Positions 37,871 to 60,508 are shown, counted from the first letter of the stretch. The stretch: 64,000 nt of DNA from a bacterium (GCA_030647555.1 JAUSJG010000004.1:36661-100660); one strand, 5' to 3'. Notes: generated by a model not told the origin, from the letters alone. Translations and numbers: made by a program.

Positions 37871-38028
37871 ATCAATTTTCAATGACCAATTTTCAATTAA
37901 TTATCCAACCTTCGCTAAAGCTTCGGTTGGCAGGCAATGGCTCAATTAGTTGAGTTACGGCGTCGTCTTTTGATAATTATAAAATTGAACATTCATTGAT
38001 AATTGGTCATTGAAAATTGATAATTAAC
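37871..38028. repeat. intergenic palindromic repeat, family B (arms ATCAATTTTCAATGACCAATTTTCAATTAATTATC / TTGATAATTGGTCATTGAAAATTGATAATTAA)
   Basis: Inverted arms of about 32 bp flank a 90-bp core containing the hairpin CCAACC...GGTTGG; right arm near-identical to 60477-60507. Confidence 0.7.
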
Positions 38029-38043
38029 ACTCGAGGATTTGAT

Positions 38044-39267
38044 CTATCGAGAATTTTCTATCTCAGTTTGTAGAACGCCAACCGCCTTATCCAATTGCAC
38101 GTCAATTTTGTCCGTTGAATCTTGGTCATCAACTTCAATGTCGGGCGTGATGCCTTTTTCATGAATGGCGTCGCCTTTTGGCATAAACCATTTGGCAATC
38201 GTCACGCGCAGACTGGAGCCATCGCTAAGGCTGATCATTTCCTGAACCGAACCTTTTCCAAAAGATTTTTCACCGATGATTTTAATTCCACGATTATCCC
38301 GCAAGGCCCCCGCAAGAATTTCCGACGCAGACGCCGACCCGCCATTCAATAAAACAATGGTTGGAATTTTGTTCAGCTCCCCCGGACCCATGGAATAATG
38401 GGTGACGGTTTTTTTAGGATCAATAGGAATTTCCTTCACCACGACGTCTCCCGTTTTTAGGAAGTGGCCGGCGATTTCCACGGCGCCATCCAAAACTCCT
38501 CCCGGGTCGTTGCGCATATCCAAAACAATTCCTTTTACGCGCGCTTGCGAAAGTTGTTTTACAATTTCCTTAAATTTTACGGCCGTATCTTCATGAAAAA
38601 CCGACAAATTAATAATACCGATGCCATCTTTTATCTCAAGCGTGACGCTTTTTAACACGATATTGTCTCGCTTTATCGTAATCTCAATCGTTCCGTCTTG
38701 TTTTTCACGAATAATTTTCAATTTTACTTCCGTACCAACGGGACCGCGAATTCGATTGGCAATTTCCGTGATCGATTCGTCCTGTTTAATTATTTTATCA
38801 TCAATCGCGATGATGTAGTCGCCCGCCTTTACGCCCGCTTTTTGTGCCGGCGAATCTTTTAACGGCGCCACGACTGTCACAAGATCGTTTTTGATGGAAA
38901 TTTCCACGCCTATTCCGGAAAATTGACCGCTAAGTTCCTCGGCAAATTGTTTTGTTTCTTCCTTGTTGGCGTAGGCGGAAAACGGATCGTCTAATCCGGA
39001 AACAAGACCCTTTAAAATTCCATCCGAAAGATTTTCATCTTTGATCGGGCTGACATATTTTTTGTGAACAATCTCCCATACTTCATTGATTAAATCGGTA
39101 CTAATCGCCCTGGGTAATTCACGAGAAAAAATGCTGGGCCGTGTAAATGAAGCATTGTTGGCAGTGGGTGCGAGATTATTTTTGCCGACACTTGTGCCAA
39201 TAAAAAAAGCGACTACAACTAATAAAATATAACCAATACGATGTAGTTTTTGGAAATTAATTGTCAT
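38044..39267 (-). CDS. carboxyl-terminal processing protease (S41) with PDZ domain
   Basis: PDZ region plus S41 motifs TVVLLNGGSASASEILAGALRDN and GEKSFGKGSVQ. Confidence 0.85.
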   Translation of the reverse strand: MTINFQKLHRIGYILLVVVAFFIGTSVGKNNLAPTANNASFTRPSIFSRELPRAISTDLINEVWEIVHKKYVSPIKDENLSDGILKGLVSGLDDPFSAYANKEETKQFAEELSGQFSGIGVEISIKNDLVTVVAPLKDSPAQKAGVKAGDYIIAIDDKIIKQDESITEIANRIRGPVGTEVKLKIIREKQDGTIEITIKRDNIVLKSVTLEIKDGIGIINLSVFHEDTAVKFKEIVKQLSQARVKGIVLDMRNDPGGVLDGAVEIAGHFLKTGDVVVKEIPIDPKKTVTHYSMGPGELNKIPTIVLLNGGSASASEILAGALRDNRGIKIIGEKSFGKGSVQEMISLSDGSSLRVTIAKWFMPKGDAIHEKGITPDIEVDDQDSTDKIDVQLDKAVGVLQTEIENSR

Positions 39268-41053
39268 TGGCTTTGGGAAGTGTAACGGCGATATGTAATT
39301 CCTTAAGTTGTTTTTCAGAAACTTCCGAAGGTGCGCTCATCATCGCGTCTTGGGCCTTACCGTTCTTGGGGAACGCATAAATATCGCGAATACTTGTCAT
39401 ATCCCAGAGAACCATCATTAGGCGATCAATACCGGGCGCGCACCCACCGTGTGGTGGTGCACCAAACTTAAAGGCCGAAATCATTCCACCAAAACGTTTT
39501 TCAACTTCTTCCTTAGTGTAACCGGCGATTTCAAACGCTTTGTACATAATTTCCGGTTCGTGGTTTCGGATTGCGCCGGAGCTTATTTCAAAACCGTTCA
39601 AGACAAAATCATACTGGTACGCCAAGATTTTCAACGGATCTTGTTCGTTTAATGCTTTCATCCCACCTTGGGGCATCGAAAATGGGTTATGTGAAAAATC
39701 AATTTTGTTTTCTTCCTTGTTGAATTCGTACATCGGGAAATCCACCACCCAGCACCAAGCGGCCTTTTTGGGATCTTTCAGACCGAGCAAGTCGGCAGTG
39801 GCGATTCTTACCTGCCCAAGTGAACTGCACGTTTTTAGCCACTCACCCGCCCCAAAGAATAAGCCATCACCGTCAACGGCACCAGCTTTTTCAATCAATT
39901 TTTTTGTAAGATCTTCACCCAAGTATTTATCGATCGGTGACGCCGGCTTTCCGTCTTTAATTAAAATATAGGCCAAGCCGTTTGCGCCGGAAGCCCTCGC
40001 TTTTTCGGTTAAACCATCTATTTCACTGCGTGTGAATTTTGCGCCACCCGTTACATGCAACATTTTTACCACGCCGTCATTTTTTATAACATCAGAAAAC
40101 ACTTTAAATCCGCAATCTTTTACCATTTCCGAAACATCGTAAATTTTTAGATCATAACGTAGATCGGGTTTATCAATCCCATATGTATTCATCGCGTCGT
40201 GCCAGGTAATGCGCGGAAACGGTGCCTGGAGAACAGTTTTTTCACTAAACTCATTTGTGAGTTCAATCATTAATGGCTCAATCATTTGAAAAACGTCTTC
40301 TTGTTCCACAAAACTCATTTCCATATCGAGTTGATAGAATTCTCCGGGATGCCGATCGGCCCGAGGATCTTCATCACGGAAACACGGCGCGATTTGGAAA
40401 TAACGGTCAAAACCGGCCACCATTAATAATTGCTTGAATTGTTGTGGCGCTTGCGGTAGCGCATAAAATTTTCCCGGATAAAGCCGGCTGGGTACTAAAA
40501 AGTCACGGGCGCCTTCGGGGGATGAATTAGTTAAAATCGGCGTTTGTACTTCCGTAAAGTCATTTTTGTGCATATATTGTCGAATGTATGTAATCAATTC
40601 GTCACGACGCTTTAATAAATCTTGCAGTCGTCGATGTCGCAAATCAAGGAAACGATATTTCAGACGAATTTCTTCGTTGGCATTGCTTTCGCCCGCAATT
40701 TCAAATGGCAGGTTTTCGCAAGTGCTCAAAATTTCCGCCGATTTTACTTCAATCTCAATTTCACCCGTTGAAAGGTTCTTATTAATCATATTTGCCGGAC
40801 GCGCCGTGACTTCGCCGGAAATTTTAATTACATATTCATTTCTTAGCTTGTTGCCCAGTTCAAAAATTTCCTTTCCCGATTCTTGGCGAAAAGTAAGTTG
40901 GGTTATACCGTAACGATCTCGCAAATCAATAAAAATAACGCCGCCGTGATCACGGCGAGTATTCACCCAACCGGCCAAATTTACCGTTTCACCGACCTGC
41001 TCTTTTCTTAGGGCCCCACAATCGTGGGTGCGAATGGAAGTTTTGGTAGTCAT
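39257..41053 (-). CDS. aspS: aspartyl-tRNA synthetase
   Basis: N-terminal OB anticodon-binding domain; class II motifs (FRDEDPRADRHPGEFYQLDMEMSF; GGCAPGIDRLMM). Confidence 0.9.
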   Translation of the reverse strand: MTTKTSIRTHDCGALRKEQVGETVNLAGWVNTRRDHGGVIFIDLRDRYGITQLTFRQESGKEIFELGNKLRNEYVIKISGEVTARPANMINKNLSTGEIEIEVKSAEILSTCENLPFEIAGESNANEEIRLKYRFLDLRHRRLQDLLKRRDELITYIRQYMHKNDFTEVQTPILTNSSPEGARDFLVPSRLYPGKFYALPQAPQQFKQLLMVAGFDRYFQIAPCFRDEDPRADRHPGEFYQLDMEMSFVEQEDVFQMIEPLMIELTNEFSEKTVLQAPFPRITWHDAMNTYGIDKPDLRYDLKIYDVSEMVKDCGFKVFSDVIKNDGVVKMLHVTGGAKFTRSEIDGLTEKARASGANGLAYILIKDGKPASPIDKYLGEDLTKKLIEKAGAVDGDGLFFGAGEWLKTCSSLGQVRIATADLLGLKDPKKAAWCWVVDFPMYEFNKEENKIDFSHNPFSMPQGGMKALNEQDPLKILAYQYDFVLNGFEISSGAIRNHEPEIMYKAFEIAGYTKEEVEKRFGGMISAFKFGAPPHGGCAPGIDRLMMVLWDMTSIRDIYAFPKNGKAQDAMMSAPSEVSEKQLKELHIAVTLPKANDN

Positions 41054-41099
41054 TGCTTAAAAGGATAGCGTAAGACCGAAGTCAGTACAAGGAAATTTA

Positions 41100-41480
41100 T
41101 CTTCAGTCTTCCAGTAGCGAAGATCTCCTTTAAAAAGAAAAAACCGTGCGCAGGTCTCTTGGTATCGATGTTTTTTGGATAGGGTGGGGTGGGCACCACA
41201 ATCTTAAAACATCAGAGATTGCGCACGGCAAGAACAGTATAGAACAAAGTGGCACCCGAGCAAGGTGCGATCCTCTCACGCACGTTCTCAACGCGCGGAT
41301 CCTCATAAAAACATTTATTTTACAAATGAGGCGCAAGGATTACGCAACAACTTGCCCGGGTTACCACTCGTAACAACAACTAGGTGGAAATTCCACCCAC
41401 TGTTGTGACGCTATACCATCAGATTTGAACACTCTTTTTCAGTCACCCAGTCGGCCATAAGGGCGTCGAATCTCTGATTG
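41100..41480 (+). ncRNA. candidate structured ncRNA in a 770-bp gene-free interval (weak RNase P RNA-like P12/J12-13 similarity; unresolved)
   Basis: Long hairpin GUGCGCAGGUCUC...GAGAUUGCGCAC, then GGCAAGAACAGU..GUGGCACCCGAGCAAGG, which resembles the E. coli M1 RNA segment GCGCACC..GGUAACAGU..GUGGCAC..GGAGCAAGG. Further hairpins at 41369-41412 and 41585-41640 end with AAAAGGCCUUUU. No canonical P4 found. Confidence 0.25.
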
Positions 41481-41824
41481 CTCAAATCTAACGGCATATT
41501 TACTATAGCTGGTACAATGAACAGTCAATATATAGATATAGATTTTTCATCACTTCGTCAAACCCTCCTGACATGTTTGATAGTGGCGGTACTGTGGAGG
41601 GACAGCACCGCCGCTACCAAGCGCCTCTAAAAAGGCCTTTTGTGAAGTAACCGATCAGTGTATCCCAGGGGTGAATTTTTGTCAATGAGGTGCGAATTTG
41701 CTGAAAATTAGTGCTTCGCTAACCCAAATATATTAAAATCACAAACAAAAATATGCCGAAAATGGATCCTTATCCACAATTAAAAAACTCCCCTTTTTGT
41801 CAAAACTTCAGATGTATTACGAGA

Positions 41825-42859
41825 TTACTCGTGCTCTTTCTTGATTGAAAGATAAATCTCCATAAGTGCAAAAAGTAAACTAACCATCAACGGGCCCAAT
41901 ATAAAACCAAGTGGGCCAAAAAAAGCAATTCCACCAAGTATTGATAAGAGAATAATGAACGGATGAATATTTACACCCTTTTCCATAAACTTCGGACCCA
42001 AAAAATTATCAACTAAACCGACAGCCATAACAGACCAAATAAGCATACCTAGTGATGCCAAAAATTGACCGCTCAAGAAAAGGTAAATAATAGCGGGAGT
42101 CAAAACCAAAGCCGTACCTACTCCCGGGATCAACGCCGCAATTGCCGCGGTACTCCCCCAAAGGGTTGGATTTGGCACTCCAAAGATGGCAAAACCAACC
42201 GAGGTTAATATACCCTGGATAACAGCAACAACCAAAGTGCCACGAATTACGGAATTTACAGCGACGATAAGTTTTTTTGCGATGGTTTCATCATGCGTAT
42301 CGTGCAGAGGACTTAGGGTAATTAAGTAAGCCTTAAATTTTTGGCCGTCCTTAAAGGTGTAATATAGTGCCACGAGAAATATAAACGAGCTAATAAGCAG
42401 GCTGGCAATGTTTGAAAACACCGGACCCAGGTGCTGTAGTAGCCAGGTTAATCCTTGCTTTAGATATTGGTTTAGGTCTACGGAGAAATTAAGAGGCAAT
42501 GAGGTTATATCTCTTACCTGGTTGATCGTTTTTTCAGCATATTGCGAAATATTGGTTGTGTTGCTTTCATCCGTAATCGAAGAGTACATCCCCGTTGCTT
42601 CATAAAAAATATTTATTCCCACAAAAATGAGAGGCATAACAGCTATAACCAAGACAATAATTGTAGAAATAAAGGCTGCTAGACCCTGTTTGTTGCGGGA
42701 AATTTTAAGAATTACACGGTGAACAGGGGCAAAAATCGTAACAAAAACCATTGCCAAAATTATTGCTGAAATGAATGGTTTGAAGACATAAAAACTTAGG
42801 ATAATAGTCCCCAAAATTAGGCTCACCAAGAAGATTGTCTCAGATTTTTTTTGTGGCAT
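41825..42859 (-). CDS. AI-2E family transporter (UPF0118/PerM-like)
   Basis: 344 aa, about 8 TM helices with family-typical topology and Gly-rich C-terminal helices. Confidence 0.65.
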   Translation of the reverse strand: MPQKKSETIFLVSLILGTIILSFYVFKPFISAIILAMVFVTIFAPVHRVILKISRNKQGLAAFISTIIVLVIAVMPLIFVGINIFYEATGMYSSITDESNTTNISQYAEKTINQVRDITSLPLNFSVDLNQYLKQGLTWLLQHLGPVFSNIASLLISSFIFLVALYYTFKDGQKFKAYLITLSPLHDTHDETIAKKLIVAVNSVIRGTLVVAVIQGILTSVGFAIFGVPNPTLWGSTAAIAALIPGVGTALVLTPAIIYLFLSGQFLASLGMLIWSVMAVGLVDNFLGPKFMEKGVNIHPFIILLSILGGIAFFGPLGFILGPLMVSLLFALMEIYLSIKKEHE

Positions 42860-42981
42860 TGGTGTTTAATTGATTACAACTTTATTTTATACTATCTGTT
42901 TGATGTAATCAATGATGCAAGCTTTAGGAAAGGGAGGAATAGTTACAACTTTACCAAATAACCAACTTTGCGTGTGATCTG

Positions 42982-44109
42982 TTAATACCAACCCATTCCT
43001 ACCACTAACACGCCCGGATCTGTTTTAACGTCCAAAATTGCTTTTCCGGCAATATCAAATATTTGTAATCCTTTCACGTCGTAGCTAAAAAAGTTTTCCG
43101 ACACGGCCGGCAGTGTGGGAGAAATCAACAGCGCGGGTGCCTCAAAAACTTTCGTCACTTGATTTGTGTGATTGTCAAAATATGCCAAGGAATGATCCAG
43201 CATCAAAAATAGTCGATTATCACCGGACCAGTTTAGTTGAAGATTGCTGATCGAATCGTTGATTTGTACAGGTGTCACCTTCTTTGTTGCAAGATCAAAG
43301 ATAAAAGGAGTTAAGTTGGCAGGCCAATCCTTGTGTTTTCCCGCATAAAATGCCAAATACCTGCCATTTTGCGATAAGTTGGTATTAAATTCGACCGCCT
43401 CATTTTTGTGGATAAAGATTCGTTCAATTTCGCCATTGGTGTTATTAATTTTATTCAAAAAAAGTGAGTTGTATACCAACTTGGTCGGATCGTTCGGATT
43501 CACGGAATCTTCCGTAAAGCCTTGGTAAATGTACTCGGCATCGTTCGGAATTAGAAGTTCGTTCAGCATTGCGCTTCCCTTTATGATGTCTTTGGAGAAA
43601 ATGATTCTGCCGTCGTTGGTATCATTTTTTTTAATGTTCTGGTTTTGACCATTTATCGTACTCATCATGATTGAGTGGTCGAATTTGTTTACTGCCCAAC
43701 TGTTGGAATGTTCAGACGTTTCAAAAATAAGCGTTGGGGCGGTTTGGTTCCAACCGATTTTGTAGAAACGCGAAAAACTGGTGCCATCCTTGTTCATTGG
43801 CGCGCCATCATATTCAGATTGGCCTTTTGTTAAATAGAAAATTTCATTTGTTTCTGGATTGTATTGCACCGGGTAAGAAAATTGACTGCTGGAAAGATAA
43901 TCAGAAACCGGTACGGATTTACTTGCCGTGACTCGTTTTGTTATGACATCAATCAGCTGGATTTCCAGCGTATTCTCTGTTTTTGTTGCGACAAAAAGGA
44001 TGCTTTTTGCAACAGTTACCTTCCCCACCCTCAAAAAAATAGCCCCGGCAAGAATGCCAAAAACGATGATAGTTAATATAGAAATTGTGCGAGAAGTGAG
44101 TATTTTCAT
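42982..44109 (-). CDS. hypothetical membrane-anchored extracytoplasmic protein (possible beta-propeller)
   Basis: N-terminal TM segment, N/S/T-rich, no catalytic motif. Confidence 0.4.
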   Translation of the reverse strand: MKILTSRTISILTIIVFGILAGAIFLRVGKVTVAKSILFVATKTENTLEIQLIDVITKRVTASKSVPVSDYLSSSQFSYPVQYNPETNEIFYLTKGQSEYDGAPMNKDGTSFSRFYKIGWNQTAPTLIFETSEHSNSWAVNKFDHSIMMSTINGQNQNIKKNDTNDGRIIFSKDIIKGSAMLNELLIPNDAEYIYQGFTEDSVNPNDPTKLVYNSLFLNKINNTNGEIERIFIHKNEAVEFNTNLSQNGRYLAFYAGKHKDWPANLTPFIFDLATKKVTPVQINDSISNLQLNWSGDNRLFLMLDHSLAYFDNHTNQVTKVFEAPALLISPTLPAVSENFFSYDVKGLQIFDIAGKAILDVKTDPGVLVVGMGWY

Positions 44110-44430
44110 ATACGATTCTAAAAATTCATTTTAACAAAATATGATATTCTTGCTCGTCTTGTGAGGTCACTAATCTATTGTCGATAAATATCGCGACCCT
44201 AGTTTCTTGTTTGTTTGACTCCATAAAAAAACATTAATCTTATTAAATAAAAATAACAAGAGCCCCGTTAAGGGCTCTCGTTGCTTATCACTGCCGAAGC
44301 AATAGATAAGGATTTGTTCTGTTTGTATTATAGTCCTCTATCAATACTTGTCAATACTGTCATTTAAACTTGTCATTTAAACACTACTTTCGAGTGCCTG
44401 TCCCGCGAAACTCATCAGAGTGAAGTGGGA

Positions 44431-44446
44431 CGCCCACCAAGAATCG
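44431..44446. repeat. 16-bp exact duplicate of the tRNA-Lys 3' end (att-like scar)
   Basis: cgcccaccaagaatcg is identical at 44431-44446 and 44612-44627. Confidence 0.6.
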
Positions 44447-44606
44447 GCCTCGAAATGTGTAATTGAAATTTCACATTTCTGGCCACCGGCAATCGGTTTC
44501 GCTTCAAGCGAAACATCGATTGCCGTTCGATTCTTGTCGTAACACAAGCAGTTGTGTTACTTGGGCGAACCAATTAAAAACAACCCGCAAGGGGTCGTTT
44601 TTAATT

Positions 44607-44682
44607 TGGTGCGCCCACCAAGAATCGAACTTGGAACCGTTGGCTTAAAAGGCCACTGCTCTACCAATTGAGCTATAGGCGC
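44607..44682 (-). tRNA. tRNA-Lys (anticodon UUU)
   Basis: Reverse complement GCGCCUAUAGCUCAAUUGGUAGAGCAGUGGCCUUUUAAGCCAACGGUUCCAAGUUCGAUUCUUGGUGGGCGCACCA. Cloverleaf with 7-bp acceptor stem, U8, GG in D-loop, anticodon loop CUUUUAA, T-loop UUCGAUU, encoded CCA. Confidence 0.85.
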
Positions 44683-44788
44683 CCGCCTTCGCTTTGATTC
44701 CCTATCAAAGCTACGGTGGGCAAGCATCTGGTTTATAGACCAATTACTTGTCCACCGAAGCTCTGAACGATTTCAGAGCGAAGGTGGA

Positions 44789-44800
44789 AGCTATAGGCGC
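44789..44800. repeat. 12-bp duplicate of the tRNA-Lys 5' end
   Basis: agctataggcgc is identical at 44789-44800 and 44671-44682. Confidence 0.45.
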
Positions 44801-44904
44801 GTACTTGATAGCTATTATTAAAGGCTATTTGTGATAATTTTGCAAGAAAAAAACCGCATTCACATGGAACGCGGTTTCGTCGAGCGCTTCTGTCACCGTG
44901 GTGA

Positions 44905-46575: not shown

Positions 46576-46593
46576 GGATTAATACAAATCAAA

Positions 46594-47241: not shown

Positions 47242-47264
47242 CAAAATTCGTGAGCGAATTTTGT

Positions 47265-47388
47265 AAATCCCAAACATCAAATCCCAATGTCCAACAAAAC
47301 CCTAAAAATCAAAATAACCAAAACGGCACGCTTTTGGGGTTTTTGAAATTATGATTTTGTTGGGATTTGGTCATTGGGATTTGGGATT
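47265..47388. repeat. intergenic palindromic repeat, family A (arms of about 55 bp, core CCCAATGTCCAACAAAAC ... TTTTGTTGGGATTTGGTCATTGGG)
   Basis: Imperfect inverted repeat around an 8-bp centre; homologous to 53981-54103. Confidence 0.7.
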
Positions 47389-47443
47389 TATATTCAACAT
47401 TATTACTGATTCCTGCTTGTAGCAGGAATGACACGCCAATTAT

Positions 47444-48562: not shown

Positions 48563-48792
48563 GGTGAAATTTTGTATATGGTATTTAGTATATAGTATAT
48601 GGGTTTAGAATTCCCGAAGGAGATAGAAAGTTGATTTGGATATATTATCTGTATTCGTCACATGTTTAACATTTAGCGGTTCTGAATAAATCCATATACC
48701 AAATACCATATACTACATACAAACGTGTTTTCCGACCAACCTCCGTCTTGACGACAGAGGTTGAATCGCAAAACATTTGCCCAACAACTGTT

Positions 48793-50727: not shown

Positions 50728-50779
50728 TTAATAATTAATTAACATTTTAAGTTCCGTCTCATTCATCATTCATAAATCT

Positions 50780-51307
50780 TTATTCATCATTCACCGTTGG
50801 ATTATCCGAAACTTTCACCTTCGCCGGTCGCAGAACCTTGTTTCCCAACTGATACCCCTTACTTACTACCGTTAATACTGTTCCGGCCGGTTTCGTCTCG
50901 TCTTTAATGTGTTCCACTGCTTCGTGATATTTTGGGTCAAATGGGACGGCGGTCGCGTCAATCGGCTCTACTCCTTGTGTTTGTAACGCATTGAGGAAAG
51001 CTTTTTGAATATTTGTCATCCCGATTACCCACTCGTTTTTACTAATTTCCTCCGGAATTGTTGTAAACGCGGCGTCAAAATAATCTAGAACCTGTAACAT
51101 CGATCTTAAGGCCTCTTCTGTCCCATTCATTCTTGCTTTCATGTTCTCCTCGCCCATCCTGCGATGCAGATTTTCATAATCCGCCATTGCCCTTTTCCAC
51201 CCGGCTAAATTTGTTTCCGCTTCTTCTTTTAATTTCATTTCTTCTTCATTAGGAGTTATGTGACTGTGAATTTTTTGCGCTTTGTCTCCCCTTTTTAAGA
51301 TGTTCAT
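50780..51307 (-). CDS. grpE: nucleotide exchange factor GrpE
   Basis: GrpE coiled coil plus C-terminal beta domain. The ORF extends to 51424; a start at MNILKRG gives a 2-bp gap to hrcA. Confidence 0.85.
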   Translation of the reverse strand: MNILKRGDKAQKIHSHITPNEEEMKLKEEAETNLAGWKRAMADYENLHRRMGEENMKARMNGTEEALRSMLQVLDYFDAAFTTIPEEISKNEWVIGMTNIQKAFLNALQTQGVEPIDATAVPFDPKYHEAVEHIKDETKPAGTVLTVVSKGYQLGNKVLRPAKVKVSDNPTVNDE

Positions 51308-52231: not shown

Positions 52232-52248
52232 ATCTCGCGTAATTCGAC

Positions 52249-52510
52249 CTATTTGGTCTGGTCGGTAAACCGATCTTCGTCACCGCTCATAAAGTGAGCG
52301 ACGGCAAAAACCAGAAAACTTGCTACACAAATATTGACTGGCCAATAACTTACTAGGGTCGAGAATGTGCTGGAGAAATAGAACTTTAATACCGTGTTTG
52401 AAAATAACCCGACAAATCCAACCACAGTGATAATCACAATCTGGCTAGCAAAGAGTGCACCGGAAACTAGAGCAATGACACCACTTGATACCCCGACAAT
52501 GCGCAGCATG
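52249..52510 (-). CDS. small hydrophobic membrane protein (about 87 aa), paralog 1
   Basis: Likely start MLRIVGV (the ORF's upstream extension is the conserved leader); 2-3 TM helices. Confidence 0.4.
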
Positions 52511-52536
52511 GCAAATTCCTTATTCTTGTTCAAGAT

Positions 52537-52612
52537 GAAAAACGAACTAAACTGTGGGTTTAAACCCAACCAGGCACAGTAGTCCCGAAATATCGGTTTG
52601 TCAAGCACAGAC
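52537..52612 (-). promoter_or_regulatory. duplicated promoter/operator element, copy 1 (TTGACA + perfect palindrome GTTGGGTTTAAACCCAAC)
   Basis: Minus-strand sequence cTTGACAaaccgatatttcgggactactgtgcctgGTTGGGTTTAAACCCAcag...; about 85% identical to copy 2. Confidence 0.45.
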
Positions 52613-52645
52613 TAAAAAAAGACCCGCCTTATTGGGGCGGGGGCT
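52613..52645 (-). terminator. rho-independent terminator after small membrane protein gene 2
   Basis: Minus-strand RNA CCCGCC-CCAAUAAG-GCGGGUC followed by UUUUUUU. Confidence 0.55.
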
Positions 52646-52657
52646 GACAGAGCGTCT

Positions 52658-52912
52658 TTACTTTGGTTGCGTAGCGCGAGTTTCTGAAAGCACGCAGGAG
52701 GCTAGAATGAAAACGATCATGCTGGGCACAAGAACACCGAACGCCCCAAAACCGAACCAAGCAACAAATAGATCTGTGTGAATGAACTTCAGGCCAGTGC
52801 TCCAAAAGGTTGACATGGCAGCATCAACAACGAAACAACAGCCTTGAACAGCAAAGACCAATGCTTCAATCAGAAAAACGACTCCGCTCAATGCACGGAC
52901 AAATCGTAACAT
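52658..52912 (-). CDS. small hydrophobic membrane protein (84 aa), paralog 2
   Basis: Starts MLRFVRAL; similar to paralog 1 in length, N-terminus (MLR.V) and hydrophobicity. Confidence 0.4.
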   Translation of the reverse strand: MLRFVRALSGVVFLIEALVFAVQGCCFVVDAAMSTFWSTGLKFIHTDLFVAWFGFGAFGVLVPSMIVFILASCVLSETRATQPK

Positions 52913-52935
52913 GGCAATTCCCCTTAGTCTGAAGT

Positions 52936-53006
52936 GAAAAACGAACCAGAGTGTGGGTTTAAACCCAACTTGGCAGGTTATTCTCGAAATATCGATTTGT
53001 CAAGCA
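52936..53006 (-). promoter_or_regulatory. duplicated promoter/operator element, copy 2
   Basis: Minus-strand sequence cTTGACAaatcgatatttcgagaataacctgccaaGTTGGGTTTAAACCCAcac... Confidence 0.45.
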
Positions 53007-53265
53007 TCACTACTTTTTTGTGGTGCCCTAAAACACATCTCACAACAAATGTATGTGTTGTTATAACCCCACGTCGCCTCGCCCTGCGGGGCGGGCTATG
53101 CGGGGCACCACTTCGCTTTTTATAATAAAGAAGATTGAGTTTGTTATTATCAAACATGCCTGCACCGCGAAGCTCTTCATGTAAGTGAAGAGCGAAGTGG
53201 TGGACAAGATTTACATTAAATGTTAAATAGGAGGCAATCAGTTTTCGTCCTTCATCTATATTGCA

Positions 53266-53907
53266 ATGCAAAAACAACTATTAACGATCGCGATTGTCGG
53301 AATAATCATTATTGGCGCTGTAACGGCCGGTGGTTATTACCTGGGAAAAGTGATCCAAAAGCCAAAAACAACCCCATCACCTTCTGAAAGTCCTCTTATC
53401 ACAGAGCCAACGGCAACTCCGACACCAACTCCCGCTACCGTTTCGAGTACCCCAGTCTTGTTACCGACTGCCCCACCACGCACAAGCACATCAACCAAAC
53501 AACAAGTTAAGGGTGTTACGGTAACCCAAAATTCAACACCAATCACCGCTAAAACAGGGCCGGACACAACGGTTTCGAAACAAACCTCAATCCGTTTTGT
53601 TGGTGTTCCAGCACAGGCCAGCGCGAATCAACCCTTTGTGGTTAGTTGGTATATTGATGGTCCGGAAGGGCTGATGGGTACAAGCACGCGTCTCGAAACA
53701 TCACTAAATAGTAGTTCATCCACCGGCTCCTCCAGTTCTTCCGTTTCCGGTTCACAGTCATCCTCTTTTGGTGCTTTTCAAATCCCGCAAAAATTCCAAT
53801 CCGAGGTCACGTTTGGTGGCAATTCGGGACCGGTAGTGCTAAAAGTAACCGCCGAGGTAGGTGGAATTACATATACAGCACGGCAGACAGTACAATTGAC
53901 TGATTAA
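53266..53907 (+). CDS. secreted/surface protein with Pro/Thr-rich linker
   Basis: N-terminal TM or signal segment; TPTPTPA low-complexity region; C-terminal Ser-rich tract. Confidence 0.45.
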   Translation: MQKQLLTIAIVGIIIIGAVTAGGYYLGKVIQKPKTTPSPSESPLITEPTATPTPTPATVSSTPVLLPTAPPRTSTSTKQQVKGVTVTQNSTPITAKTGPDTTVSKQTSIRFVGVPAQASANQPFVVSWYIDGPEGLMGTSTRLETSLNSSSSTGSSSSSVSGSQSSSFGAFQIPQKFQSEVTFGGNSGPVVLKVTAEVGGITYTARQTVQLTD

Positions 53908-53980
53908 CACTAGTTAGTGATTGGGACTTGGACATTTTTCGGTATTCTGGTTTAGTGATTGGCTATTGACCTTTTAAATT

Positions 53981-54103
53981 CCAAAACCCAAACCCCAATG
54001 ACCAACAAAATCCAAAAAATACAAAATCCTAAGCACGATCGTTTTAGGATTTAGGACTTCGAAATTTTGTTGGGATTTGAGATTTGGTAATTGGGGTTTT
54101 ATC
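53981..54103. repeat. intergenic palindromic repeat, family A (second copy)
   Basis: Left arm CCAAAACCCAAACCCCAATGACCAACAAAATCC ... is homologous to 47280-47320; right arm TTTTGTTGGGATTTGAGATTTGG. Confidence 0.7.
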
Positions 54104-55199
54104 CTGCCGGATTAAATACCGCATATACCGTGTTCGCGTCTTTTGGATCTGTTAACAGAAATCTAATCGCATTAGTTAACGGAAACTGATAAACCTTCCA
54201 CTTGATTCCGTCGTCTTTTGATGTGTATAGGACAAAATTCGCGCCCGCGTAGATAGTTTTCCCCACCCCCGCCGCGATGGCGTTAATGGAAACGGACTGT
54301 TTTTCACTGACCGGCAACGGCACAACCGACCAGGTTTTACCATCATCAGTCGAATTAAATATCCCATGTTCAGTACCGGCTAGAATATTCTTGGTTTTAT
54401 TTCCGTCGGAGACAAACTGGATTGCCAGTAGCGACTTTGCTTCGGTGTCGCCTTTTTTAATATTGACAACTTCGAAGTTTTCCCCACCATCGCTGGAACT
54501 GGCTACTTGTCCGCTAACCAGCAAAACATACCACTGCCCCGAGGCAGGTGCGACGCGCACGCCGGCAATTCCAGATGCAAACGAATGGGCGTTACTCCAG
54601 GTCGCCCCACCATCGCTTGTTATTAGCAAAGCGCCGGAACTAGAACCGACTAGCAGAATCTCCGGTCGCGTGGGATCAACTTCCATGGCTGTGATAATCC
54701 CGGGAGCGATCTTTTTACTGAATATACCGCCTGTTTGTACAACAGGATCAACATAAATTTCTGTCCAATTTTTCCCATCGTCAAAAGATTTCCAAATCTT
54801 ATACCGTTTCGGATCCGTCACGGAATTGCCGAAAACAAATAAAATATTTGAATTACGCGGATGCACCGCGACTCCTAGAACAAATTGCGCGGGTGTTTTT
54901 ACTTGTGCCCACTCCGCAGTTGTATTATCAAAATGTAATAAACCGCTAGGCCCGGCCGCCATGTAAAGTTTTGCCGTATCGTATGGATCAAAAACAACCT
55001 TATAAGGAGCGACCTTTGTAATATCCAATCCGCCGGTATATTTCGACATTTGGGTCCAATTTTGACCGCCATCTTTAGATACATAAACGCCACCGGGCGG
55101 AATTACTGTTGTTTTAGTAGTTCCACCGCACCCGGCGCCAAATAAAGCAATAGTTCCCAATATGGCGACTAGTTTTATTATATTTGTGTTCATATGCAT
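54099..55199 (-). CDS. BNR/Asp-box repeat beta-propeller protein (secreted)
   Basis: Six S-x-D-x-G-x-(T/N)-W repeats: SKDGGQNWT, SFDDGKNWT, TSDGGATWS, SSDGGENF, STDDGKTWS, SKDDGIKWK; N-terminal signal or lipobox-like GAGCGG. Confidence 0.65.
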   Translation of the reverse strand: MHMNTNIIKLVAILGTIALFGAGCGGTTKTTVIPPGGVYVSKDGGQNWTQMSKYTGGLDITKVAPYKVVFDPYDTAKLYMAAGPSGLLHFDNTTAEWAQVKTPAQFVLGVAVHPRNSNILFVFGNSVTDPKRYKIWKSFDDGKNWTEIYVDPVVQTGGIFSKKIAPGIITAMEVDPTRPEILLVGSSSGALLITSDGGATWSNAHSFASGIAGVRVAPASGQWYVLLVSGQVASSSDGGENFEVVNIKKGDTEAKSLLAIQFVSDGNKTKNILAGTEHGIFNSTDDGKTWSVVPLPVSEKQSVSINAIAAGVGKTIYAGANFVLYTSKDDGIKWKVYQFPLTNAIRFLLTDPKDANTVYAVFNPAG

Positions 55200-55415
55200 A
55201 TTTTAGCACTTATGGATAAATAGACAAAATAATTTGAAATTTGAAATTTTTAATTTGAAATCAATTTTTAATATCTAAATTTGAAATACGAACGCGTTTT
55301 TCAAATTAATTTATTACGATATTTTTTATCGGCCATAGCTTTAGCGACGGCTGACAAATTGATTAAAAATTTCAAATTTCAAATTATGTAAGGTGTTAAA
55401 TGATATGCCTGTTGT

Positions 55416-56375
55416 TTGGGAAAATTGTTCAATATTCAACAAATAAGAATTATTTGCTATACTGTCCTCGTGCTAAGACAAATAAAAACAAAAGAGCTAA
55501 CTTGGATAGACATTATCGATCTTACAAAAGAAGATTTGGATTTTCTGGAACGAGAGTTCCAATTTCATTCTTCGGATATTCAAGAACTCACCCACCGTTC
55601 AACGCGACCGAAGTTGGAAGAATATCAGGGGTATATGTTTGCAATCGTTCACTCCCCCGTCTTTGATGCCAAATCACGCAGTACGACCCCTGCGGAAGTG
55701 GATATTTTTATTACCGACGGCCACATTATTACCGTTCATATGGGACGCGTGCATTTGTTGGACCAATTTTTTAGACAGATAAACGAGAGCGAAAAATTAC
55801 AAGAGCGCTATGTCGGTAGAAGCGCCGCCTATTTGCTTTACAGTATTATGGGCGTGCTAATTGATTCGTCATTTCCGAAAATTGATCATATTTACGAAAA
55901 AATTGAGCTTGCCGAACACAAAATTTTCAACGGCGAAGAGCGCGCAATGGTGTACGAGTTGAGCTCCTTAAGCCGCGATTTGTCCGGTTTCCGCCAAATT
56001 ATTCGTCCGCAAATTCATCTCTATAATCCCGAAATGTTGCATGGCGATTTCGCGACGCCCGCCTACAAGGCAATTTTTAAAAGCATCCAGTCTCGTTTAC
56101 AACGAGTTTGGGATGCTTTAGACAATCAATACGAAAAAATTACCTCCTTATCCGATACTAATGCCAATCTTTTATCGCACAAACTAAACGAATTTATTAA
56201 AGTACTAACACTAATCAGCGCGCTTTATATTCCATTGGCAGTAATTGGTCAGGTTCTGCCGTCTATTTCCGACGCGCCACAAGTTAATTTTGTAATTTTT
56301 TGGTTATTAATCGGCTTGATGTTGGTAATCGACTTTGTTATTCTTTGGTATTACCGCGCCCGCAAAATGATCTGA
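55416..56375 (+). CDS. CorA-like divalent-cation transporter family protein (GMN motif not conserved)
   Basis: Soluble N-terminal domain plus two C-terminal TM helices; LTLISALYIPLAVIGQV sits where CorA has ...YGMNF. Confidence 0.45.
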   Translation: MGKLFNIQQIRIICYTVLVLRQIKTKELTWIDIIDLTKEDLDFLEREFQFHSSDIQELTHRSTRPKLEEYQGYMFAIVHSPVFDAKSRSTTPAEVDIFITDGHIITVHMGRVHLLDQFFRQINESEKLQERYVGRSAAYLLYSIMGVLIDSSFPKIDHIYEKIELAEHKIFNGEERAMVYELSSLSRDLSGFRQIIRPQIHLYNPEMLHGDFATPAYKAIFKSIQSRLQRVWDALDNQYEKITSLSDTNANLLSHKLNEFIKVLTLISALYIPLAVIGQVLPSISDAPQVNFVIFWLLIGLMLVIDFVILWYYRARKMI

Positions 56376-56950
56376 TGAAAGTAATATCGTCGATTATTAA
56401 TCTGATTCCGCGTAGGATTTCACCTAATCACATCACGGGATTCAGGTTTTTTTTAATCGCGCCGATTGTCTACTGTATTTGGCAACAATTGTGGCTTTAT
56501 TTTGTGATTTTGTATTTTTTAGCATTATTTTCGGACTACCTGGATGGCATTTTGGCGCGAGAACGCGGATTGGTTACCAAGTTCGGCTCAGCGCTTGATC
56601 CGGTCGCTGATAAATTACTGCATATTGTTGTATTGGGCTTTCTTGTTCCCTTCGCGCCCGTACTGATTGGTGCGATTATTTTGCTTGATATTATTGTTTT
56701 GTTTGGCGGGTGGATGGTAATTCACAACTTTAATAAAAAGAATAAAATTCTTCACATCAAGGGTGCGAATATTTTCGGAAAAGTTAAAGTAATTTTACAG
56801 GGGCTGGTAATTATTCTGCTATATTGTTACCAAATTTTTCCACAAACGTTATTTACTTGGCCGGTAGCGATAATTTTAATTATATTTACCTTAATTTTCT
56901 CCGCGTTATCGATTTTGGATTACGCATTCGCGTTAATGCGCGCAAAATAA
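56376..56950 (+). CDS. CDP-alcohol phosphatidyltransferase
   Basis: Signature D-G-x2-A-R-x8-G-x3-D-x3-D in FSDYLDGILARERGLVTKFGSALDPVADKL; the ORF begins at 56300, but the likely start is MKVISSI. Confidence 0.75.
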
Positions 56951-57095
56951 AATTTATTAGCATAAAACTGCTTGACAGTGTTAGAGATTGCTCGTATAAA
57001 TTAATTAGACGCGAAATTTAAAATAATTTTCGCAGGTAAAACAAAAAAGAGTTTAATATAATACAAACAAGGAAATTGAAAGGAGGTGGTCGCAA

Positions 57096-57158
57096 GTGGC
57101 AAAAAAGAAAGCAGCAAAAAAGACAGCGAAGAAGAAAGCAACAAAGAAGCGCAAATAA
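57096..57158 (+). CDS. possible 20-codon Lys/Ala-rich micro-ORF (VAKKKAAKKTAKKKATKKRK) with strong SD
   Basis: AGGAGG at 57081-57086, 9 nt before a GTG start; not in the ORF track because it is too short; purely sequence-based. Confidence 0.2.
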   Translation: MAKKKAAKKTAKKKATKKRK

Positions 57159-57335
57159 CATTGCTAACGCATTTTGTGCGTTTCATGTATTTGTATAAGC
57201 CTCCTTTTTTCCTACCCCACTTAAGCATCCCTTGAGGATGAGAGAACTAGCCCTTGAGGAAGTCTCGTCTAGGTGGAGAACGAAGAAGGAGGTTTTTGTA
57301 TTTACCTGCTCGTTCTACTACGTTACACTCATAAT

Positions 57336-58790
57336 ATGAAGGTACACATCTGGAACACGCTTGAAAAGACCTTAACGGAGGTTGTACCGGTTAATCCGGA
57401 TGGCGTCGTTAGAATTTATAATTGCGGACCAACGGTCTATAGTACCCCGCACATAGGCAATATCCGTCGTTTTATTGTTGCAGACTTGCTGGTAAAGGCA
57501 TTAAAACATCTTGGATACTCGGTTCGTAGTGTTATGAATATCACTGACGTCGGCCACCTTATGGATTCCGATCACGCGGAAGCCGGTGCCGACAAAATGC
57601 TGATTGCATCGGAAAGAGAAAAACTGACGCCGGAAATAATCGCCGCCAAATACACGCAGGAATTTTTCGCGATATTGATTCAGATGCGAGCGGAGCCGGC
57701 CGATTTTTACCCGCGCGCCACAATGCATGTCTCCGCCATGATTAAAGTTATCGAAAACTTAATAACAAACGGTTTTGCGTATGAGACTAATTCCGGAATA
57801 TATTTTGACGTCACAAAATTTAGTAGTTACGGAAAACTTTCCGGTAATACCACGGCGGAAGTGGAACCGGGCGCGCGCGTTGGCGTAAGAGAAGAAAAAC
57901 GTCACGCGTTTGATTTTGTTCTTTGGGTAAAAGCAGAAAAGGAACATATTATGCAATGGGACAGCCCATGGGGGCGCGGTTACCCGGGCTGGCATATCGA
58001 GTGTTCCGCGATGGCGCAACAGCTTTTGGGTGAAGCAATTGATATTCATACCGGTGGAATCGATAATATGTTTCCGCATCATGAAAACGAGATTGCGCAA
58101 AGTGAGGGTGCCTCCGGCAAACAATTCGTCAAAACATGGTTGCATAATGAGCTCCTCTTGGTTGATGGAAAGAAAATGGCAAAAAGTACCGGTGGTTATA
58201 TTACACTCAACGAAATTATTAAACGTGGCTATAATCCCCTCGCACTCAAGTTTCTATTTTTACAAACTCATTACCGTTCGAAATTGAATTTTGGTTGGTC
58301 GGCGCTTGATTCGGCCGTGGACGGGTTAAAAAGCCTTCAGGGTTTTGTGGATAAATTAATTGTCACCGGTAATCAAGACGATTTAGAAACATCTGTAAAA
58401 CCGGCGTCTCAAATTGATCTCAATGATTATTCCGAAAAGTTTTCAAGCGCGTTAGCGGACGACCTTGGCACACCGCAAGCAATTGCGATTATCTTTGAAA
58501 TTATTCGTAAAATTAATCCCCTGTTGGAAAATAATAGTTTATCAAAACAAGACGCCGTTAAAATATTGGAACTTTTCCGGTCATTTGACGCGGTTTTGGG
58601 TATAATATCGTTTGTTGGAAAAGAAAAAACAGCGGTTCCGTCGGAAGTTACGGAATTGATAAGCAAGCGCGAAAAAGCGCGCCAAGATAAAAACTATTCC
58701 CTCTCTGATGAATTACGGAAACAAATTATCGCTAATGGTTTTGACGTAAAAGATACCGCCATTGGCCAACAACTGACGTCGATTAAGTAA
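57336..58790 (+). CDS. cysS: cysteinyl-tRNA synthetase
   Basis: HIGNIRRF (HIGH) and KMAKSTG (KMSKS); the ORF extends upstream to 57273, but the start is likely MKVHIWNT. Confidence 0.9.
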   Translation: MKVHIWNTLEKTLTEVVPVNPDGVVRIYNCGPTVYSTPHIGNIRRFIVADLLVKALKHLGYSVRSVMNITDVGHLMDSDHAEAGADKMLIASEREKLTPEIIAAKYTQEFFAILIQMRAEPADFYPRATMHVSAMIKVIENLITNGFAYETNSGIYFDVTKFSSYGKLSGNTTAEVEPGARVGVREEKRHAFDFVLWVKAEKEHIMQWDSPWGRGYPGWHIECSAMAQQLLGEAIDIHTGGIDNMFPHHENEIAQSEGASGKQFVKTWLHNELLLVDGKKMAKSTGGYITLNEIIKRGYNPLALKFLFLQTHYRSKLNFGWSALDSAVDGLKSLQGFVDKLIVTGNQDDLETSVKPASQIDLNDYSEKFSSALADDLGTPQAIAIIFEIIRKINPLLENNSLSKQDAVKILELFRSFDAVLGIISFVGKEKTAVPSEVTELISKREKARQDKNYSLSDELRKQIIANGFDVKDTAIGQQLTSIK

Positions 58791-58932
58791 TGTGATATTG
58801 TGCAATAACCTAAACTCATGCCCAGTAATACAACCCGCCATTCATTAATCCGTCTAAGCGATGCATATTCGAAATACTGGATTTTATCATTAATAATCAA
58901 CTCCGTGATTAATAAGCGATCGAAATCGCTTA

Positions 58933-60378
58933 TTGTGGCGGGTTGATATACTGGGCATGGCCGATAAGCACAAAAAACAACCAACAAGAAACCCTTTTCG
59001 CTCGGGTGATCGTATTCCTCCTCATAACCTAGAGGCGGAAGTTTCCGTACTGGGCAGTTTACTGCTCAATAAAGACGCAATCATTAAAGTCGCGGATTTT
59101 CTTAGAGCACCGGACTTCTATTCACCGATGCACGCCTTAATTTATGGGGCAATTATTGATTTATACGAACGTCGCGATCCGATTGATATTATCAGCTTAT
59201 CAAACATCTTACGCGATCAAGGAAATCTTGCCGGAGCGGGTGGCGAATCTACCATTGCTTCCTTGGCCGCCGCCGTGCCAACGGCCGGTCACGTTGAGCA
59301 TTATGCGAAGATTGTTCAAAAGAAAGCCACCCTGCGTCGTTTAATCAGTGCCGCGGCCAATATCAGCGAGCTTGGTTTTAATGAGGAGGAAGAAGTAAAT
59401 AAAGTTTTGGATGAAGCCGAGCAGAGTCTGTTTTCCGTCTCCCAACAACACTTGAGACAATCTTTCGTACCGATGAAAACGGTTTTAACAGAGGCTTTTC
59501 ATCGCATCGATAGTCTGCACAAGGGCGACGGCAGTTTGCGCGGTCTTCCAACTGGTTTTGCGCCACTCGATAATCTTCTTTCCGGTCTGCAACGGTCCGA
59601 CTTGGTCATTCTAGCGGCTCGCCCCAGTGTTGGAAAAACATCCCTCGCGCTGGATTTTGCGCGCCACATCGCGGTGCGTGAAAAAGCGGCGGTTGGCGTG
59701 TTCAGCATTGAAATGTCCAAGGAACAGTTGGCAGATCGCTTAATATGCGCGGAAGCGGGAGTAGACCTCTGGAAAATGCGGACCGGACATCTTTCCAACG
59801 AAGGTTTTCCCGATGACGATTTTTCACGGATTAATCGCTCGATGGCGGTATTATCCGAGGCCCCTATTTATATCGATGATTCGGCAAGCAGTAATATTAT
59901 GGAAATTCGCACTTTGGCACGACGCTTGCAGGCAGAACACGGCATTGGTTTTCTGGTAATCGATTATTTGCAATTATTGGAAGGAGATTCCAAGGAAGGT
60001 CGCGTGCAAGAAGTTTCCCAGATTTCTCGTGCGTTAAAAAGTTTGGCGCGTGAATTAAATATTCCCATTCTTGCGTTATCGCAGTTGTCGCGTGCCGTTG
60101 AAGCACGCCTACCGCCCGTACCAAAACTGTCCGACTTGCGTGAAAGCGGATCCATTGAACAAGATGCCGACGTGGTGCTTTTTCTGTATCCCCGCGGTCG
60201 TCACGAAAAAACGGCGGAAAGCCCCAATATCGTCGATGTTATTATCGCTAAACATCGTAACGGACCGACCGGCGTGATCTCCCTCTACTTCAAAGAAGAG
60301 TGCGCCAGTTTCGCGGCAATTGATACACAACATTATCAGCAGGAAGAAGTCGGACATAAGGCACGAGCGAGAGCGTAA
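58933..60378 (+). CDS. dnaB: replicative DNA helicase DnaB
   Basis: N-terminal DnaB domain (EAEVSVLGSLLLNKDAI); RecA-like core with Walker A ARPSVGKTSLAL. Confidence 0.9.
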   Translation: MWRVDILGMADKHKKQPTRNPFRSGDRIPPHNLEAEVSVLGSLLLNKDAIIKVADFLRAPDFYSPMHALIYGAIIDLYERRDPIDIISLSNILRDQGNLAGAGGESTIASLAAAVPTAGHVEHYAKIVQKKATLRRLISAAANISELGFNEEEEVNKVLDEAEQSLFSVSQQHLRQSFVPMKTVLTEAFHRIDSLHKGDGSLRGLPTGFAPLDNLLSGLQRSDLVILAARPSVGKTSLALDFARHIAVREKAAVGVFSIEMSKEQLADRLICAEAGVDLWKMRTGHLSNEGFPDDDFSRINRSMAVLSEAPIYIDDSASSNIMEIRTLARRLQAEHGIGFLVIDYLQLLEGDSKEGRVQEVSQISRALKSLARELNIPILALSQLSRAVEARLPPVPKLSDLRESGSIEQDADVVLFLYPRGRHEKTAESPNIVDVIIAKHRNGPTGVISLYFKEECASFAAIDTQHYQQEEVGHKARARA

Positions 60379-60380
60379 CC

Positions 60381-60508
60381 AAAATTTTCAATTATCAATT
60401 CCCAATTATCAATGAATTATCAATTATATAATTATCAAAAGTCCGACGTATTTGAAAATTGGAATTTGATAATTAATTGATAATTGACCATTGAAAATTG
60501 ATAATTAT
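60381..60508. repeat. intergenic palindromic repeat, family B (second copy)
   Basis: Right arm TTGATAATTGACCATTGAAAATTGATAATTA is near-identical to 37997-38027; left arm has AT-rich ATTATCAAT repeats. Confidence 0.7.

Follow-up and report, generated by a model that had tools for sequence, protein, structure and literature searches.

What are the long AT-rich palindromes that lie between the genes of a 64,000-nt stretch of bacterial DNA (GCA_030647555.1, JAUSJG010000004.1:36661-100660; hereafter the window, with positions counted from its first letter), and how did they come to be there? An earlier note had described two homologous pairs of such palindromes (families A and B), a related motif cluster and several further palindromes, and had read them either as dispersed elements similar to repetitive extragenic palindromes (REPs) or miniature inverted-repeat transposable elements (MITEs), doubling as bidirectional terminators, or as binding sites for one DNA-binding protein. 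It was found that each of the arms consists of degenerate tandem repeats whose period is 7 nt and that the elements are inverted pairs of such arrays; this periodicity had gone unnoticed in the first reading. It is considered rather probable that they are heptanucleotide-repeat hairpins similar to the short tandemly repeated repetitive (STRR) sequences, which would have been gained by slippage and copying of whole elements and would be tolerated or used as terminator or 3′-end hairpins. The elements are given below with their class, the z-score of the fold relative to dinucleotide shuffles and, where obtained, the score of R1, a covariance model built from family A.

E1, 19866-20019: class I hairpin in the convergent spacer between an Xer-like recombinase gene and an Ada-Zn gene; 39-nt arms, 82% complementary in the inverted-repeat search; 5′ arm TAATGAC CAATGTC CACTACC CAATAAC, complement on the 3′ arm; z = -6.8; R1 29 bits, E = 1.6e-3.
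E9, 34535-34889: GTAT-type heptamer arms (34535-34558 and 34866-34889) with a 300-nt cargo between them.
E2 (family B, copy 1), 37867-38025: class I hairpin 18 nt 3′ of a ctpB-like stop codon; arms (CAATTTT/CAATGAC/CAATTAT)n, 94% complementary; 89-nt core with two small hairpins; z = -7.2; R1 31.7 bits.
E3 (family A, copy 1), 47264-47390: class I hairpin between a convergent hypothetical gene and dnaJ; 5′ arm TAAATCC CAAACAT CAAATCC CAATGTC CAACAAA; inner hairpin CCAAAAC-GGCACG-CTTTTGG with an A-tract on one flank and a T-tract on the other; z = -4.8; R1 122 bits.
E4 (family C), 48571-48723: class II hairpin in the dnaK-dnaJ spacer, adjoining a separate GC hairpin (48745-48771); 5′ arm GTATATG GTATTTA GTATATA GTATATG, 3′ arm ATACCAA ATACCAT ATACTAC; z = -3.4.
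Tandem array, 50759-50793: (TCATTCA)x5, overlapping the grpE stop codon; a single array with no palindrome.
E5 (family A, copy 2), 53976-54099: class I hairpin between convergent genes; 5′ arm CAAAACC CAAACCC CAATGAC CAACAAA; inner hairpin ATCCTAAGCACGATCGTTTTAGGAT; z = -3.7; R1 125 bits.
E6, 55229-55387: class II hairpin in the divergent promoter region of corA and a BNR-protein gene; arms (AATTTGA)n/(TCAAATT)n, 100% complementary over 26 nt; z = -6.7.
E7 (family B, copy 2), 60383-60506: class I hairpin forming the entire dnaB-recR spacer, from 4 nt past the dnaB stop to 10 nt before the recR start; z = -5.1; R1 51 bits, E = 5e-8.
E8, 61132-61215: class II arms around a GC hairpin between convergent recR and rplU; arms TGAATAA TGATTTA TGATTGA / TCATACA TCATAAA TCATTAT; z = -6.5; R1 20 bits, E = 0.12.

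In each element, Tandem Repeats Finder assigned a period of 7 to both arms, with the units AATTATC, TTGGGAT, TCATTGG, GTATATA/AAATACC, AATTTGA and TCATAAA. According to a lag-autocorrelation scan (threshold 18/28 matches), the window contains 16 segments at lag 7 and 0–3 at lags 4–6 and 8–11, while the seven segments at lag 12 reflect coding periodicity and the ten at lag 14 are a harmonic of 7. Control DNA consisting of 723 kb of unrelated metagenome contigs yielded 38 lag-7 segments, below the counts for lags 6 and 9. In the window together with 37 loci of Patescibacteria (Candidate Phyla Radiation, CPR), 74 of the 134 lag-7 segments were intergenic, the intergenic share of this DNA being 12.9%; the paired elements counted with them were 8 co-directional, 4 convergent and 1 divergent by gene context. 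All eight hairpins E1–E8 outfolded their dinucleotide shuffles (z from -3.4 to -7.2; 0/200 shuffles equalled them). The GC content of the window is ~41%. Since the element-bearing spacers have 17–39% GC, one might suppose the elements to have arisen by chance in intergenic DNA that is AT-rich and of low complexity, a background against which the earlier note had itself wished to see the motifs measured; but the shuffles never matched the folding energy, the motif counts or the lag-7 excess, and the control DNA showed no such excess. These comparisons rule out a chance origin, to which next to no credence is given.

The arms fall into two classes. In class I (E1, E2, E3, E5 and E7), the 5′ arm is rich in A and C and nearly devoid of G, its complement lies on the 3′ arm, and the unit is approximately CAAWNNC (CAAATCC, CAAACCC, CAATGAC, CAACAAA, CAATTTT and CAATTAT), with the consensus C-A-A-W-N-A/N-C when the phase is set on CAA. 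Class II (E4, E6, E8 and the arms at 34535 and 34866) has the reverse polarity, with 5′-arm units GTATATG, AATTTGA and TGAATAA. The consensus structure consists of paired blocks of 4–5 bp, mostly CCAA/TTGG, with three variable positions between them. The order of the heptamer variants is unmirrored between the two arms of one element, and the minimum free energy (MFE) folds contain bulges of whole heptamers, as is expected if each array slips independently. The cores range from ~10 nt to ~100 nt and carry small GC hairpins; in E3 and E5, A/T tracts flank an inner hairpin whose stem is weak. The only longer core is that of E9, whose cargo comprises two GC hairpins and, ahead of them, a DUF3800-V RNA (34634-34729, + strand) that matches Rfam RF02964 with 78.5 bits (gathering score 37.4); a 107-aa open reading frame (ORF) called across this unit (within 34453-34967) is probably spurious, and it is of practical relevance that gene callers run ORFs into the elements. 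Two other structural readings were rejected. A G-quadruplex as a general explanation fails because family B, E1 and class II have no G3 tracts and those of E3 and E5 are too few or too widely spaced, and a TIGR or CRISPR-like array fails because the elements lack a spacer/repeat organisation and the window encodes neither Tas nor Cas.

An inverted-repeat search recovered every hairpin that the earlier note had named. Family A was as described there, with arms of ~55 nt and both copies between convergent genes, and its copies are 75% identical; the right arms of family B agree at 32/35 positions, both copies lying at gene 3′ ends, and the motif cluster after the recombinase proved to be the inverted repeat E1. 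The third motif of that note, CCATATACTACATAC, stands in inverted pairs at 34535/34866 and 48581-48602/48692-48720, with nine matches in the window at ≤3 mismatches against 0.71 expected. The core said to be shared by both families and the cluster was borne out only in part: the exact 11-mer CCAATGACCAA occurs twice (0.04 expected in the window), both times in family A, but related variants exist in family B (TCAATGACCAA) and in the recombinase cluster (CCAATGACCAC), and nine sites were found at ≤1 mismatch against 1.6 expected, seven of them inside elements. Among the remaining palindromes listed in the note, those corresponding to E4, E6 and E8 hold, but the segment 50710-50790 is no palindrome (MFE -3.8 kcal/mol) and contains instead the (TCATTCA)x5 array, which runs into the last grpE codons beside an AT-rich 15-nt repeat. 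The bias toward intergenic positions and gene 3′ ends is real: of the convergent window spacers measuring ≥60 nt, an element occupies four out of five, and the gap between element and stop codon is -3 to 22 nt for E3, E7, E8 and at many other loci.

For the construction of R1, the family-A copies were aligned with similar elements from elsewhere (mean column identity 74%), of which two, from the Portnoybacteria locus L025 and from locus L028, came from loci fetched only for a nearby dnaJ. In the window, R1 gave more than 120 bits for E3 and E5, 51 for E7, ~32 for E2 and 29 for E1; E8 was marginal, and E4 and E6 had no match. Thus, a single model ties together families A and B and the recombinase cluster, in agreement with the dispersed, related family proposed previously. 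A search of 590 kb of CPR loci with R1 yielded four elements from L025, three from L028 and a single one from both L005 (Doudnabacteria) and L001; contigs with hits include CAVYGQ010000001.1 of Doudnabacteria and JAQTYI010000003.1 of Portnoybacteria. The control, 580 kb of metagenome DNA, gave only L047, L060, L122 and L053, which are true family-A contigs. Because of these matches, class I is, as far as sequence comparison goes, a single recognisable and specific family present in several CPR classes, the units CAATGAC, CAAATCC, CAAACCC and CAACAAA being common to these lineages. When metagenomes were scanned with CCAATGNCCAACAAAA, most matches were due to chance, the true relatives being only L047, L053, L060, L122 and perhaps L042.

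The strong fold z-scores and the specificity with which the covariance model finds relatives would also suit genes or cis-regulatory structures of a conserved structured RNA. This is scarcely credible, since no Rfam 15 family matched at the gathering score or at E ≤ 1, barring an irrelevant miRNA-precursor match (E 0.55), compensatory change was seen in only 2/22 consensus pairs with an unfavourable covariation term, both strands score and fold alike without sense bias, the core varies in length and sequence, and close relatives do without the elements.

Heptamer arrays of other arrangements were also observed outside the window. Inverted arrays do not form a compact hairpin but bracket larger segments in L013 (AATTACT/AACTACT; 18403-18458 and 20204-20259, 1.75 kb apart) and in L031 (GAATACT/CAATACT; 12990-13048 and 13403-13457, 355 nt apart), and in L028 the unit GGGTATA is repeated perfectly in two arrays (2338-2407 and 3817-3876).

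Colinear genomes allowed the history of individual sites to be followed. The window genes include hrcA-grpE-dnaK-dnaJ, aspS, pyrG, rplI, cysS, dnaB, recR, rplU and many glycosyltransferase genes, and the DnaJ-relative loci are almost all from Patescibacteria metagenome-assembled genomes (MAGs), the nearest being lake bin L001 (86% identity), a genome type obtained from the lake samples ERZ273135xx and BUCK21; the source genome is accordingly assigned, on sequence grounds, to a Patescibacteria MAG. The window is colinear with L001/L278 (DnaJ 86%), L284 (70%), L285 (68%) and L287 (64%). Where it has six heptamer features (five hairpins and one array), L278 has two heptamer hairpins, and L284, L285 and L287 have no heptamer features in that region. 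E2 is absent in all relatives covering its site (L284, L285 and L287), where the spacers measure 40–43 nt; E5 is absent in all relatives covering its site (L001/L278, L284 and L287); and at the site of E6, neither a heptamer element nor any matching sequence exists in the relatives. The dnaJ-3′ site is filled in both the window and L001, with different words (CAAATCC type and CAATTTT type, respectively), the L001 element being nearer to E7, at another locus of the window, than to its positional counterpart (75% vs 62%). At the dnaK-dnaJ, dnaJ-3′ and BNR-3′ sites, more distant relatives have compact GC hairpins, several of them A/T-tract-flanked (5/6 fold with z from -3.1 to -6.0; that of L284 at BNR-3′ is not significant, z -1.1), and the window retains a GC hairpin beside E4. 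Consequently, a hairpin is a conserved feature of these positions, whereas the heptamer elements appear from this comparison to be recent and lineage-specific.

That whole elements can be copied is indicated by L028, in which two copies of a 170-nt heptamer hairpin (6297-6472 and 9826-9994; units ACGAAGT/ACGAAAT/TCAAATC) are 94% identical over 176 nt at a distance of 3.4 kb, with sharp borders and unrelated flanks, and differ by one 6-nt and one 1-nt indel. The same pair, together with the presence or absence of elements in orthologous spacers of colinear genomes, would accord with non-autonomous MITE- or REPIN-like mobile elements moved by a transposase or recombinase encoded elsewhere, the heptamer period being a feature of their ends. 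Further points in favour of mobility are that one family is common to CPR classes whose DnaJ proteins are only 41–46% identical, that heptamer arms can enclose cargo, as with the DUF3800-V RNA unit of E9, and that a separate 185-nt palindromic repeat family of the same genome (described below) shows that dispersed palindromes accumulate there. In addition, 4/6 independently assembled population contigs of the L001-type genome (L280–L283) end inside or directly after the dnaJ-3′ hairpin, as multi-copy repeats would make them do; such ends are expected of a repeat or of a sequencing-hostile hairpin, and the elements thus break short-read CPR assemblies. On the other hand, target-site duplications, for which the earlier note had recommended a search, were found neither at the L028 copies nor at the eight window elements nor between filled and empty sites, and the ~50 window ORFs include no transposase, REP-associated tyrosine transposase (RAYT) or IS200/IS605 TnpA, the sole recombinase being of Xer type; with no GTAG/CGTC heads either, the REP/MITE label of that note is not supported. 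The window copies are ~75% identical at best, so that no recent burst has taken place, and the unmirrored variant order with whole-heptamer register shifts points to local array dynamics. Mobile elements of this kind are therefore regarded as a possible but doubtful source of the hairpins.

A phage vector is likewise not evident. A scan of 1 Mb of viral contigs for periodic CCAA arrays gave 127 arrays, of which one has an inverted partner, and a phage link was rejected on this count; the single class I-like hairpin lies on L235 (IMG/VR contig 3300029811_000255, ~2088-2200), which may stem from a CPR phage or be a CPR fragment wrongly classed as viral. Plasmid and phage collections gave no BLAST match to E3, and the low-complexity filter possibly masked the query.

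The viral arrays also bear on the reading of the elements as multimeric sites for a protein that follows the 7-nt register, such as a nucleoid-associated protein or an RNA binder of the S1/Csp/CsrA type, with the hairpin being secondary. The CAA/TTG block is conserved every 7 nt with variable positions between, identical words return in distant lineages, and a similar role has been proposed for the TAACTGA repeats of Beggiatoaceae (PMC4679880). Against this, inverted pairing is seen in all five class I arrays of the window but in only one of the 127 viral CCAA arrays, and such near-universal pairing implies that the hairpin is not incidental. Moreover, the class II words (GTATATG, TGAATAA and AATTTGA) are very different from those of class I and are unmatched by the model, syntenic relatives manage without the elements, and no candidate protein was identified. 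The reading is thus highly improbable, and the one DNA-binding protein suggested in the earlier note in particular is a poor fit with a range of heptamer words that extends from CAAATCC and CAATTAT to the three of class II.

The preferred explanation, that of slipping and copied heptamer hairpins, may be formulated as follows. Arrays would lengthen and shorten in 7-nt steps through replication slippage, the complementarity of the arms would be roughly maintained by selection or by intrastrand template switching, and new spacers would occasionally receive copies of whole elements. As the CAA/TTG blocks could pair in several registers, single-stranded DNA or RNA would fold into a long AT-rich stem, which may affect the adjacent genes as a terminator, attenuator or 3′-end-protecting hairpin readable from both strands. 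Such an effect at gene 3′ ends is most likely, because most of the elements sit after stop codons, between convergent genes or in operon spacers, where relatives have GC hairpins; the spacers of dnaB-recR and dnaK-dnaJ are filled from stop to start. Some copies, for example E6 in its divergent promoter region, are probably neutral passengers. Since the class I arms are A-rich at the 5′ side and T-rich at the 3′ side, with C/G at the junction, slippage may have extended the A-tract/stem/T-tract base of bidirectional terminators into such arms.

Several observations weigh against this explanation. Seven L001-type population assemblies carry identical elements with no variants of ±7 nt, from which it follows that slippage is not fast and the arrays are not hypervariable. 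The two family-A copies of the window are 75% alike, while each is 72–78% alike to copies from other CPR classes, values that neither simple in-situ growth nor recent transposition predicts. With regard to the role as bidirectional terminators already proposed in the earlier note, position and the orthologous GC hairpins speak for it, but a simple consensus terminator scan called none of the elements, as they have either <3 GC pairs near the loop or no 5-of-8 T run. E6 occupies a divergent promoter region, and E4 and E7 probably lie within operons, in which strong termination would have polar effects. Finally, sense and antisense fold energies are balanced (7 vs 6, no strand bias), so there is no sign of selection on a single RNA strand, and strand-specific RNA selection was rejected as an explanation.

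It should be noted that the elements reach a density of 9–10 per 64 kb in the window and that the family sits in the tiny, streamlined genomes of Patescibacteria, which have little non-coding DNA. Colinear relatives, some with elements and some without, together with the three GC-hairpin sites, provide a natural system for asking whether they are selfish, neutral or functional terminators.

Several other features of the window were recorded. The cumulative GC skew reaches its maximum at ~19800-23100, where gene orientation changes from mostly + to mostly -; the skew peak and the orientation switch suggest a replication terminus there, beside the Xer-type tyrosine recombinase gene (18842-19801) and hairpin E1. 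Positions 20656-34452 form a defence-like island, which encodes a methyltransferase-domain protein, a SocA/Panacea antitoxin-domain protein, 1240-aa and 362-aa proteins without Pfam match, a 1035-aa Eco57I/MmeI-type methyltransferase and a 1160-aa SNF2 helicase with an N-terminal PLD nuclease domain. The segment 44110-46392 (51% GC) adjoins tRNA-Lys(UUU) (44607-44682) and holds a 495-aa ORF without Pfam match and a long antisense ORF; the colinear relative L001 has no sequence that aligns with it, which makes a variable island at the tRNA gene probable.

The second palindromic family consists of repeats of ~185 nt without a 7-nt period, at 7968-8147 and 37132-37318 in the window and at 2405-2583 on L122, a metagenome contig that also has a family-A hairpin. 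Its termini are AGGGCYTGGTAATWAATAAAC...GTTTATTWATTACCAAGCCCT, and it folds with an MFE between -70 and -82 kcal/mol. Identity is 82% between the window copies and 81% for the third copy. The copy at 37132-37318 overlaps the predicted ends of the flanking ORFs and is, by comparison with the pyrG-rplI spacer of L284, which is only 31 nt, an insertion.

A literature search found no description of such repeats in Patescibacteria. Heptanucleotide simple-sequence arms place the elements with the STRRs and the heptamers of Xanthomonas and Nostoc rather than with REPs. STRRs are reportedly intergenic tandem heptamers of the cyanobacteria Calothrix and Nostoc, with units CCCCA(A/G)T, TTGGTCA and CAACAGT, and are said to have been described by Mazel and co-workers in 1990. 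If the units are as reported, TTGGTCA is a rotation of the complement of CAATGAC, and CCCCAAT is a rotation of AATCCCC, near CAAATCC/CAAACCC; TTGGTCA itself, whose identity as an STRR unit is likewise reported, lies within TTGGTCATTGG at 47367 and 53995 (complement) and also in family B. The present elements differ from STRRs as reported in their phylum and in a hairpin arrangement that lies outside the original STRR definition. A cyanobacterial origin of the window, which the STRR-like words might suggest, is excluded by the gene content and by the related loci from Patescibacteria MAGs.

Heptanucleotide units are the commonest class of long simple sequence repeats in most genomes examined (Mrazek 2007, as cited in PMC4679880). 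In each of two Xanthomonas species, ~185 GGGAATC arrays have been described, along with GGGGA(T/C)T arrays in Nostoc PCC 7120, most arrays of either kind being intergenic (Rehm et al. 2015, PMC4692102). The Xanthomonas arrays are 89–93% intergenic, lie on average 28 nt 3′ of the upstream ORF, are rare between divergent genes and form convergent inverted pairs capable of stem-loop formation in ~70/186 cases (about 40%); at a given gene pair, the arrays of related species differ in length and sequence, and their function is not established (PMC4692102). The CPR elements resemble them in being degenerate 7-nt arrays of ~4 or more units, intergenic, near the upstream ORF and rare in divergent spacers, and the complements of the units, GATTCCC and AATCCCC, resemble CAAATCC and CAAACCC. 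In contrast, nearly all arrays here are paired into hairpins, the AT-rich units mostly do not supply the four G3 tracts of a quadruplex (with no such tract at all in family B and E1), the host belongs to Patescibacteria, and elements of 120–190 nt constitute a covariance-model family across classes.

TAACTGA direct repeats occur in Beggiatoaceae, Cyanobacteria and Bacteroidetes, and in a marine Beggiatoaceae genome they lie mostly just 5′ of start codons (MacGregor 2015, PMC4679880). They share with the present elements the intergenic location, the heptameric unit and a patchy distribution across phyla, and TAACTGA strains show 7-nt indel differences; unlike the elements described here, they are direct repeats of a single word with a proposed translational role.

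The REPs of Proteobacteria, with bacterial interspersed mosaic elements (BIMEs) and REPINs, are also dispersed, intergenic, imperfect palindromes located after genes, often in operon spacers, that vary between relatives, and they have been proposed to terminate transcription or to stabilise upstream mRNA (PMC3116915, PMC3733652). REPs differ in measuring 20–40 bp, having a GTAG/CGTC head and no 7-nt period, and being RAYT-associated, whereas the arms here are 35–55 nt and the element termini are TAAAT..., AATTAT..., TAATGA... and TGAATA.... MITEs have target-site duplications flanking terminal inverted repeats and near-identical dispersed copies; of the latter, only the L028 pair is an example here. 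Bidirectional intrinsic terminators share the A-rich 5′ and T-rich 3′ flanks, the convergent spacers and readability from both strands, but the elements have AT-rich interrupted stems of 40–55 nt in place of a GC stem with a U-run, and some are at non-terminator positions.

The main puzzle is the recurrence of 7-nt words across CPR classes in a form resembling cyanobacterial and Xanthomonas words, the origin and function of heptanucleotide repeats in prokaryotes remaining unresolved in general (PMC4692102, PMC4679880). It is conceivable, though improbable, that a common sequence-specific process underlies class I as a coherent family across Patescibacteria classes, which would share the word set CAATGAC, CAAATCC and CAAACCC with the STRRs and with the GGGAWTC arrays of Xanthomonas and Nostoc. 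Were this so, the process might be an enzyme recognising or copying periodic YCAA hairpins, a replication or template-switch route that turns the A-tract/stem/T-tract base of a terminator into long periodic hairpins, or a tiny hairpin element spreading horizontally between phyla. The elements of the window belong to a known, poorly understood kind, that of inverted pairs of heptanucleotide repeats, which is present here in a new phylum and can be defined by a covariance model.

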